DNA from: a virus
Taxonomy: Duplodnaviria > Heunggongvirae > Uroviricota > Caudoviricetes
Strand: one strand, 5' to 3'
DNA length: 7,222 bases
IMG/VR virus record: IMGVR_UViG_2582580934_000004
Coordinates: 1-7,222 of that record
Positions within the stretch are counted from its first letter, which is position 1. Each line of letters opens with the position of its first letter. Position numbers and translations under genes: made by a program. This document shows, in pieces, positions 5,453-7,222 of this stretch. The notes beneath the pieces were generated by a model. That model had not been told where the DNA came from. It did no database searches and saw only the letters and a program-made list of their open reading frames with translations.

Positions 5453-5785
5453 ATGCAACACATTGACAGAGAAAAAGCGCAGCGACTGATTGAGCGGATG
5501 GAAGCGCTGGCGAAAGAAGAAAATGTCAACATCCAAAAAATAGCTGAATGTGGCCAGATAGTTCTTCGTCGTGAAAAAGACCTCAAACAACTGATGTCTG
5601 GCGAAACCAGCAAAACATGGACTTCAGGCGAGGAGACGATTTATTGCAGCTTCTGCAATAAATCTCAGTACGAAGTCACAAAGGTGATTGCCGGACCGTC
5701 TGTTTGCATCTGCAATGAGTGCGTGGATTTGTGCAATGAAATTATCAGGAGAGAAGTGACAGACAAAAAGGGAAAAAACGCATGA
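5453..5785 (+). CDS. Small protein (110 aa) with a C-terminal ClpX-type C4 zinc-finger (ClpX N-domain-like) and an unrelated ~60-aa N-terminal region
   Basis: ATG at 5453 with aaggggga RBS at 5441-5448. Residues [39 protein letters not shown] closely resemble the E. coli ClpX zinc-binding domain (recalled as [40 protein letters not shown]), including all four Cys. No AAA+ domain follows. Confidence 0.75.
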
Positions 5786-6120
5786 ACAGAAAACAAAAAC
5801 AAGAGTTGAAATACTTTTTACGTAAAGAAATTGCCAGGCTTGAAGATGCAGAATCACAATCATCAGAAATTCCGTTCGGAATGGATATCAACGACGCCCG
5901 TATGCTCCAGGCATACCGCATAGCTCAGGCTGCACTACAGGCAAAACCGTCAGATGGACTGGTTAGAGCAGTACGATTCTATGAACTGGTAAAGCGTGAG
6001 AATCCGCCAGCCGAAACCGGAGCATGGAAAGACGCTGTTGACTGGGTACTCAAAGAGGCTTGTCAGGTTGTAAACACTGGCATCAAAGGAGACCTAGCCC
6101 AGCCTGCATCAAAGCTATAG
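5782..6120 (+). CDS. Hypothetical protein (112 aa), translationally coupled to the ClpX-zinc-finger gene
   Basis: ATG at 5782 overlaps the upstream TGA (5783-5785) as ATGA; aaggga about 8 nt upstream; stop TAG at 6118-6120 followed by a strong terminator. No family recognised. Confidence 0.6.
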
Positions 6121-6130
6121 AAATGAGCCA

Positions 6131-6160
6131 AAACGCCCTCTTCCAGGGCGTTTATTTCAA
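6131..6160 (+). terminator. Rho-independent terminator ending the + strand cargo operon
   Basis: Perfect 9-bp stem aaacgccct (6131-6139) / agggcgttt (6145-6153), 5-nt loop, then atttcaa; begins 11 nt after the stop at 6120. Confidence 0.7.
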
Positions 6161-6190
6161 TGCACAATAGTGCACAAATTTGCACAATTT
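6161..6190. repeat. Three helically phased TGCACAA repeats (10-bp period) followed by a T-run
   Basis: TGCACAA at 6161-6167, 6171-6177 and 6181-6187; a fourth copy at 6253-6259. Confidence 0.8.
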
Positions 6191-6230
6191 TTTTGAACGA
6201 CTTTTTGCCCTTCCGGCCCGCGTGGCAGTT

Positions 6231-6249
6231 GGATCCGTCAAGGATCCGT
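6231..6249. repeat. GGATCCGT direct repeat x2 (11-bp period)
   Basis: ggatccgt at 6231-6238 and 6242-6249; the same 8-mer recurs inside the portal gene at 7082-7089. Confidence 0.6.
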
Positions 6250-6310
6250 GCGTGCACAAAAAAACGCGCTTTTTCTGCGCGCAGGTGACGGGGGAACAGC
6301 CCGCGTTTCA

Positions 6311-6318
6311 GGGGGGGG
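6311..6318. repeat. Homopolymeric G8 tract adjacent to a small hairpin (gggaa-tagcg-ttccc)
   Basis: Eight consecutive G at 6311-6318 in non-coding DNA; gggaa (6316-6320) pairs with ttccc (6326-6330). Confidence 0.85.
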
Positions 6319-6362
6319 AATAGCGTTCCCTTAACGATGTCGCAGCGACACGACAGAATGGC

Positions 6363-6393
6363 CGTATTTCTCACGCTGAGCGTGAAAAATACG
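6363..6393. other. 31-bp near-perfect palindrome (14-bp arms, one mismatch, 3-bp centre)
   Basis: cgtatttctcacgc-tga-gcgtgaaaaatacg; the reverse complement of the left arm differs from the right arm at one position. Confidence 0.8.
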
Positions 6394-6561
6394 TGAGGGA
6401 TTCTGGTTTGATGGGGTGAAAGGTAAGGCCGTCAAAATCGCACTGAGGCGGCGAGAACATGCAGTCAGCGCAGTGGGATTGCGTAAGAGTCTGACCGTCG
6501 ATGATGGCAATAAGCAGGAAAGCGTCGTGAAATTATCTGACTGATACAGGAGCTGGAGAGT

Positions 6562-6586
6562 CGGGGCATAAATTTTTTATGCCCCG
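6562..6586. terminator. Inverted repeat cggggcataaa / tttatgccccg downstream of the portal gene; weak candidate terminator
   Basis: Perfect 11-bp arms with a 3-nt loop; GC-rich base and AT-rich top; no clear U-tract after it on either strand. Confidence 0.3.
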
Positions 6587-6636
6587 GCGAAGCAGCAGAC
6601 AAGCGAAGCGCGTCAGGATGTGGGCTGGGTGTCCAG

Positions 6637-6710
6637 CAGTGCATAAGGGTTAAAGCGGATCACCTCTATCTAACAGTGCGTAAGGGTTAAAGCGGATCAC
6701 CTCTTCGCCA
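6637..6710. repeat. Imperfect tandem duplication with a 37-bp period across the 3' end of the portal gene
   Basis: cagtgcataagggttaaagcggatcacctct (6637-6667) against cagtgcgtaagggttaaagcggatcacctct (6674-6704), 30/31 identical. The - strand stop codon (6650-6652) lies inside the first copy. Confidence 0.85.
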
Positions 6711-7222
6711 AGCCAGTCATTGATGTGCTTCATGGCCTCCATGACGGGCATCAGCTCGTTAATTGCGTAAACCCGCGCGGCCTTCTCCACATCACCAAAC
6801 GCACTTTTTTCACCCGGCATCGCCCCCATCAGTTGCGGCGGAACGCGGTGCGCAGCCAGTACATCATCACGGGATGCCGCCTTAACATTCATGAACTCAT
6901 CCTTTGCGGTGATCTGCTGGAACGGCAAAATTTGCACACCTTCTTTGCCCCCGTTGGGCGCATGAATGAGCACGTTTTTAAACGCACCACCACCACGTGC
7001 ACCCTGTAACGTTTCTTTCAGGGAGTCCATGCTTTCGCGGTTTACCTGCGCTGCACCGATGTAGATGATGCACCCGGCGTGGGATCCGTTGTCGTAGTAC
7101 AGTTTTCTGAACATGTCCGCCGAATGAGAAAGGCTGGCTGAGAGTAATGCGCCAAGATATTCCGGCATGCCGTAGATTTCCTGGTTAATATCCGGATTCA
7201 TCAGGTGGCACACTTTGCCAGG
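6650..7222 (-). CDS. Portal protein (P2 gpQ-like), 3' portion; the 5' end lies beyond the window
   Basis: The - strand translation (NPDINQEIYGMPEYL...YYDNGSHAG...SRDDVLAAHRVPPQLMG...FGDVEKAARV...NDWLGEEVIRF) resembles P2-family portal proteins as recalled. It is convergent with gpA, as expected for the A-cos-Q arrangement. The C-terminal codons run through the 37-bp duplication. Confidence 0.7.
   Translation of the reverse strand, partial: PGKVCHLMNPDINQEIYGMPEYLGALLSASLSHSADMFRKLYYDNGSHAGCIIYIGAAQVNRESMDSLKETLQGARGGGAFKNVLIHAPNGGKEGVQILPFQQITAKDEFMNVKAASRDDVLAAHRVPPQLMGAMPGEKSAFGDVEKAARVYAINELMPVMEAMKHINDWLGEEVIRFNPYALLDRGDPL

Follow-up and report, generated by a model that had tools for sequence, protein, structure and literature searches.

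In the P2 family, the cos sites of phages P2 and 186 are defined by 19-nt 5' cohesive ends that have been experimentally mapped and annotated in their sequence records, and the ends of P4 have also been mapped. According to later summaries of Ziermann and Calendar 1990 (PMC3931495, PMC9594776), a conserved 55-bp cos core is sufficient for function. P4-like satellites are stated to share homology with P2-like phages only at cos, and the variable cargo adjacent to cos in P2-like phages is a known hotspot of exchange and defence (PMC9122126). In the literature that we searched, which did not extend to Ziermann and Calendar 1990 itself, neither a P88-type cos nor GCAY repeats were described, and the searched literature yielded no binding or footprint data for gpM-family proteins and no statement of the direction of P2 packaging.

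The window, the whole stretch of 7,222 nucleotides that was analysed, is ~98.8% identical to phage P88 (Xuanwuvirus, Peduoviridae) over positions 5700-7222. The annotated order in P88 runs from a replication endonuclease through a ParM-like gene, partition genes and small cargo genes to a gap, followed by a convergent portal gene and the large terminase, and the gene order around the corresponding region of the window is the same as at the P2 and 186 cos. The 3' part of the portal gene, the homologue of P2 gpQ, occupies 6650-7222 on the minus strand, with its stop at 6650, and converges on the candidate cos; other features with an orientation are given for the plus strand. The cognate terminases of P88 are encoded outside the window and comprise a large terminase and a small terminase (gpM homologue) that matches PF05944 (E 6e-37) and is encoded ~5 kb from the cos region.

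Two hairpins bracket the region. A terminator-like inverted repeat (AAACGCCCT / AGGGCGTTT, 6131-6153) closes the variable cargo genes and lies outside the conserved cos module, and a perfect hairpin with an 11-bp stem (6562-6586) lies between cos and the portal stop, at the position of the P2 tQ and 186 tW terminators. The sole Rfam match, to gyrA RNA at 6554-6607, overlaps this second hairpin but scores 22.2 bits, below the gathering score of 45 (E = 0.0065). We took the sub-threshold match as chance; it most probably reflects no more than the terminator hairpin of the portal operon. The portal gene itself carries an imperfect 37-bp tandem duplication at its 3' end (6632-6667 versus 6669-6704, 92% identical). 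Neither P88 nor any of the 78 IMG/VR relatives has the extra 37 bp (6632-6668), which are also missing from the E. coli prophages that match best. The added bases shift the frame such that the portal protein ends in NPYALLDRGDPL rather than NPYALLDTQPTS. Three bases distinguish the two copies, a pattern that would fit unequal recombination between two alleles or their mis-assembly.

The predicted cohesive end and its flanks

The earlier note proposed positions 6161-6400 as a candidate cos or control region and could not recognise the P2 or 186 cohesive-end sequence by eye. We rebuilt the cos junctions of P2 and 186 by joining each record end to end and aligned these mapped junctions with the window and with phiT5282H, an Enterobacter phage (Novemvirus) that is the only more distant phage match to the window, being 73% identical over 6161-6305 and not elsewhere in the intergenic region. 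The alignment places the cohesive-end sequence at 6284-6302, where the predicted cosN GGTGACGGGGGAACAGCCC aligns column for column and in the same orientation with P2 and 186 and is identical to P2 GGCGAGGCGGGGAAAGCAC at 13 of 19 positions. The window, P2 and 186 have matching flanks, consisting of TGCAY with an A-run, a short GC dyad, the 19-mer and then YGCG, and P4 has the same sequence organisation at its junction. Scanning with the P2/186 19-mer alone was abandoned as a means of locating the site, because several unrelated sites in the window also matched at 13 of 19 positions. Since a match of this quality is not significant by itself, the cosN assignment rests on the flanks and the position, with nick positions estimated to within 1-2 nt.

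Across relatives, phiT5282H shares the whole 24-mer GCGCAGGTGACGGGGGAACAGCCC with the window, and GGTGACGGGGGAACAGCC is unchanged both in this phage and in 21 Enterobacterales species. Intermediate 19-mers found at two IMG/VR loci, L163 (GGCGAGGCGGGGGACAGC) and L103, link the P2 and P88 forms. None of the 18 phage records that matched the window starts at 6284. By homology with P2, 186 and P4, terminase would make staggered nicks flanking 6284-6302, and the expected product is a 5'-protruding cohesive end of ~19 nt.

Repeat layout and extent of the conserved module

The sequence, a pattern search and a repeat finder all bore out the claim of the earlier note that three TGCACAA repeats at exact 10-bp phasing are followed by a fourth copy, with starts at 6161, 6171, 6181 and 6253. 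The count of this 7-mer is unremarkable on its own (five in the window, a number reached by 14 of 200 shuffles); three copies of any one 7-mer at a fixed spacing of 9-12 bp appeared in 0 of 2000 dinucleotide-preserving shuffles of the window. The repeats of the distal array (6161-6167, 6171-6177 and 6181-6187) start 123, 113 and 103 nt to the left of the top-strand nick that we predict. The proximal copy with its A-run (TGCACAAAAAA, 6253-6263) begins 31 nt left of the nick and is the homologue of the TGCATTAAAA of P2, 186 and P4, which begins 29 nt left of theirs.

Counted from the first base of the 19-mer, the TGCAC repeats of the window and of phiT5282H start at -123/-113/-103/-31, the TGCAT repeats of P2 at -123/-111/-101/-29, and those of 186 and P4 at -124/-111/-101/-29. 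The distance from the third distal repeat to the proximal repeat is 72 bp in all five. Absence of the array from related phages with a conserved cos had been named beforehand as the finding that would speak against a cos region; the opposite was seen, with the array present at the same offset in phiT5282H. This, together with the TGCAT version of the array in the mapped sites of P2, 186 and P4, supports the proposal of a cos region.

A search with the pattern of four repeats and their spacing only matched at least 120 IMG/VR stretches. Among the matches listed, a cos-like 19-mer (GG[CT]G...GGGG) follows the proximal repeat in 118 of 120, the exceptions being one locus with none (L197) and one incomplete stretch (L185), and the neighbours include a portal gene in 79 and a homologue of P4 psu in 32. 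To avoid circularity, a converse sample was assembled in which loci were chosen by the 19-mer alone, without the finds of the repeat pattern. In this sample, 74 of 79 P2-type and 70 of 71 P88-type regions were scorable, having at least two distal repeats plus the proximal repeat. Of the 74 P2-type regions, 56 have a distal-to-proximal spacing of 72 bp and 11 one of 71 bp; among the 70 P88-type regions, 67 have the 72-bp spacing. Repeats 2 and 3 are separated by the 10-bp step in 60 of 74 and 69 of 70, respectively. The 72-bp gap is kept in ~150 distinct cos regions chosen only by the 19-mer, P4-like satellites included. Across 76 cos-selected P2-type regions, conservation measured as information content is confined to two islands, -124 to -96 and -37 to +26; the window aligns through the second of these, and in the P88-type lineage conservation reaches about +30.

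The P88-type 18-mer occurs 44 times in GTDB species representatives. All 21 matches in Enterobacterales carry three distal repeats at the same offset, one of them with a variant proximal copy (TGTACAA), and 20 of the 21 come from 11 or more genera. Distal repeats accompany 0 of the 23 chance matches in other phyla, which lie in unrelated G+C-rich genomes. In IMG/VR, a portal gene is on the expected side of 97 of the 98 18-mer loci with enough flank; the exception, a C-type 18-mer without a portal (L367), was set aside as a chance match inside a G+C-rich coding region. The remaining Enterobacterales match is in a 226-kb contig labelled Vagococcus sp. WN89Y (L402, NZ_JBQPOM010000071.1), whose P88-type cos is identical to the window over the stretches printed, which suggests contamination or mislabelling of an assembly labelled as a Firmicute.

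Similarity of 14 or more phage records to the window begins exactly at 6161, and when 74 distinct IMG/VR relatives were aligned, identity was at background left of 6160 and >90% from 6161 on. Because identity begins there, the first TGCACAA is the left edge of the conserved backbone, and the DNA that precedes it belongs to the variable cargo hotspot next to cos in P2-like phages. Comparison of 21 P88-type regions from 11 or more genera delimited the module on both sides, with conservation from 6161 to ~6314 and background beyond either end. On the right, conservation stops in the flank of the core, GCGTTTCAGGGG (6303-6314).

Several other elements lie between the distal array and the nick. A T7 tract (6188-6194) directly follows the array and is strongly conserved in the P88-type lineage (21 regions, 11 or more genera). 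The block TTTTTGCCCTTCCGGCCCGCG (6201-6221), situated in the spacer that joins array and core, is kept in different genera, but only within the P88/Novemvirus-type lineage; its position is not conserved in P2-type cos regions, it has no counterpart in P2, 186 or P4, and it could be a second protein-binding site. The GGATCCGT doublet that had been reported is present at 6231-6238 and 6242-6249 and forms a 6-bp dyad, GGATCC N5 GGATCC (6231-6249). It is only partly conserved and probably no part of cos: the second GGATCC is kept across genera and the first is not, and the doublet is missing from phiT5282H. Beside the nick, within the conserved core, a GC-rich dyad (6264-6282; ACGCGC and GCGCGC around TTTTTCT) takes the position of the CCGCCC..GGGCGG dyad of P2. 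We considered a selected stem at this site and dropped it, because in P2-type sequences three pairs are near-invariant or G-U-tolerant and the fourth is mostly unpaired, leaving no clear covariation.

The G8 tract (6311-6318) and the 31-bp palindrome (6363-6393) are both present as described, the latter as CGTATTTCTCACGCT G AGCGTGAAAAATACG with 15-nt arms that are 93% complementary and with no T-run after it. Only the first bases of the G8 tract fall inside the conserved core. Its length is variable, with 6311 and 6317-6318 different or absent in most close relatives, and the run in the window is longer than most. The palindrome is kept only among close relatives (93% or more identical) and not in other genera with the same cos. 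The proposed interval of 6161-6400 was thus upheld as cos from 6161 to ~6314 and given up from ~6315 to 6400, where conservation is confined to close relatives; for this reason the palindrome and most of the G8 tract are probably outside cos.

The judgement that the region holds no credible ORF was also confirmed. Five small ORFs overlap it, three of which are not intact among 74 distinct close relatives; in the two that are mostly intact, variable sites are distributed over codon positions as [16,13,11] and [16,14,9], with no third-position excess. Small ORFs annotated inside the region in P88 and P88_4B11 were likewise rejected, as their substitution pattern is not coding-like. Length polymorphism of the G-run alters which small ORFs look open across annotations, P88 gp21 being an example.

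Candidate readers of the repeats

GCAC-type arrays occur only with P88-type terminases (small subunit 60-100% and large subunit 75-100% identical to those of P88) and GCAT-type arrays only with P2-type terminases. The small terminases of P2 and P88 are 37% identical and both belong to PF05944. Both repeat classes are found in E. coli and the repeat type tracks the terminase lineage, which favours a phage-encoded over a host-encoded reader, although this covariation is confounded by shared ancestry because the data form essentially two clades plus a few hybrids. In one hybrid (L163), the array reads TGCAC/TGCAT/TGCAC and the terminases are about as distant from those of P2 as from those of P88; another (L103) combines a TGCACAA array with GGCGAGGCGGGGGAGCAAGC; and a third (L092) pairs TGCAT repeats in its distal array with a proximal TGCACAAAAA and with GGCGTGGCGGGGTCACGAT. 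These hybrids could help to assign which subunit reads which element.

P4-like satellites also keep the array, as seen in 32 psu-adjacent loci among the matches listed and in P4 itself, and their retention of the distal repeats is hard to explain unless the packaging machinery of the helper reads them. Among classifiable cos sites in IMG/VR (L091-L381), 24 of 101 P2-type and 0 of 84 P88-type sites are psu-adjacent (Fisher p = 1.5e-7, in samples that are non-independent and with satellites detected only by a P4 psu left of cos). We saw no P4-like satellite with a P88-type cos among the IMG/VR loci classified. The findings suggest that helper-satellite specificity may be set by the class of repeat and nick site. 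More tentatively, a switch of P88-like phages to the TGCAC/GGTGAC class may protect them from piracy by P4-like satellites.

Taken together, we consider it likely that 6161 to ~6314 is the cos of a P88-like P2-family prophage and that it carries a two-part recognition element for the small terminase. This reader is proposed because satellites keep the array, repeat type follows terminase lineage, and both classes coexist in E. coli. The element would consist of the three repeats on one face of the helix, spanning 123 to 97 nt to the left of the nick, together with the fourth copy, which is 31 nt away on the same side. An oligomeric small terminase would contact the phased repeats and the proximal copy, and the 72-bp spacer, ~seven helical turns, would be bent or wrapped such that the large subunit is positioned on the nick site, with TGCAC versus TGCAT setting which terminase lineage uses the site. 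We infer protein binding to the repeats, bending, the nick positions and a role in initiation versus termination from sequence comparison.

The 55-bp core excludes the array, so the distal repeats may be a packaging enhancer that is not strictly required. Longer DNA flanking this core, on a side that the source does not specify, raises P2/P4 cosmid transduction >1000-fold (PMC9594776), a gain consistent with accessory or enhancer elements outside the core. Only tentatively do we extend the reading to the whole P2/P4 family, which might possess an unreported two-part recognition element (three phased GCAY repeats and a proximal copy at 72 bp) in at least two specificity classes.

The region could instead be cos with the repeats acting as a cosQ-like termination signal, read by the translocating terminase before the terminal nick. 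In favour of such a signal, the repeats are confined to one side of the nick, with conservation on the opposite side ending within ~26-30 nt, and the cosQ of lambda is located on the last-packaged side of cosN. P2 reportedly matures circular monomers, a result credited to Pruss and Calendar, in which case one P2 cos serves both initiation and termination. Lambda cosQ, however, is a single short element near cosN rather than a phased array ~100 bp away, and a termination role for the repeats would leave the 63-bp core as the sole conserved candidate for an initiation site. We regard this explanation as unlikely.

A host nucleoid protein site or intrinsically bent DNA, serving as an architectural aid in the way that IHF does at lambda cosB, would fit the A/T tracts AAATTT, T7 and T5 that flank the repeats (6175-6205), the T-run between repeats 2 and 3 that is conserved in both repeat classes, and the fixed 72-bp spacing, which suits bending or looping. 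A host factor would be expected to select a single motif, whereas two classes exist within the one host E. coli and follow the terminase lineage, and the GCA core is conserved base by base instead of being merely A/T-rich, making a host reader very improbable compared with the small terminase.

The repeats might also mark the cargo edge as an operator, promoter element or recombination target and be linked to cos by mere proximity. The similarity of relatives breaks within 1 nt of the first repeat, the cargo is an exchange hotspot (PMC9122126), and in P2 the mapped starts of the old-tin mRNA follow closely downstream of the array. Against this, a promoter scan of 5900-6800 found no sigma-70-like promoter on either strand, both neighbouring genes end pointing into the repeat region, and the distances between repeats and nick are fixed despite unrelated neighbouring genes, when a cargo-linked element would vary with its cargo. 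We give such an origin a slim chance at best.

Least probable of all, a true P88-type cohesive end elsewhere, for example at 6206/6207, is suggested by the Xuanwuvirus P88_4B11 record (NC_049391), which starts at the equivalent of window position 6207 inside the conserved block 6201-6221, but we dropped this start as a physical end because the end and start of the record join seamlessly with no terminal repeat, as in a circular permutation, because position 1 was set relative to reference genomes after removal of assembly repeats and not by end mapping (PMC6969025), and because the block is lacking from P2, 186 and P4.

Significance and comparison with known packaging sites

The two-part small-terminase site that we favour would place cos for a very common prophage group, as DNA similar to the window is contained in 1146 of 5426 complete E. 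coli genomes and the group extends to 11 or more other enterobacterial genera. No cos site is annotated in the P88, P88_4B11 and phiT5282H records, and cos annotation is absent from the phiT5282H-type records examined. The alignments also set the exact left boundary of the cos-adjacent cargo hotspot at 6160/6161 and provide a testable map of bases and spacings for the poorly studied gpM-type small terminase. The layout is relevant to P2/P4 cosmid delivery, in which DNA beyond the 55-bp core alters transduction by this same >1000-fold margin (PMC9594776). Of these results, the two-part layout across the family and the lack of P4-like satellites bearing a P88-type cos most merit further study.

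Compared with lambda cos (cosQ-cosN-cosB), the window likewise has a predicted nick site and a separate cluster of candidate small-terminase repeats ~50-150 bp away, with putatively bent DNA between them, and the lambda site served as the model for the mechanism proposed above. The analogy is functional only, since there is no sequence similarity, the terminases belong to other families, and the repeats lie away from the terminase genes. In a lambda-type cosB, gpNu1 R-sites of 16 bp and an IHF site separate cosN from the small-terminase gene, whereas the repeats of the window are 7 bp.

Closer to the window are phiT5282H and prophages of Salmonella, Citrobacter, Kluyvera, Erwinia, Pantoea and other genera, which share its 18-mer, TGCACAA array and spacing, and thus its putative specificity class. 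They differ from the window in the DNA surrounding the module, which has other cargo on its left side and no detectable similarity past about +22 to +30 on its right.

The cos regions of P2, 186 and P4 occupy the same genomic position, between the cargo/replication flank and the convergent portal gene, in the same orientation and with a homologous 19-mer and flanks, and they have four repeats, with repeats 2 and 3 at 10-bp phasing and a 72-bp gap to the proximal copy. The portal, the large terminase (~45% identity) and the PF05944 small terminase (37%) are also homologous. In contrast, the 19-mer of the window differs from that of P2 at 6 of 19 positions (GGTGACGGGGGAACAGCCC versus GGCGAGGCGGGGAAAGCAC), TGCACAA replaces TGCAT(G) as the repeat unit, repeats 1 and 2 are spaced exactly 10 bp apart rather than 9-13 bp, the proximal repeat is 31 nt instead of 29 nt from the nick, the spacer contains an extra lineage-specific conserved block, and the distance from the nick to the portal stop is ~350 bp versus ~170 bp. 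By these comparisons, the feature in the window is a P2-family cos layout of divergent sequence, which we read as a different specificity class.
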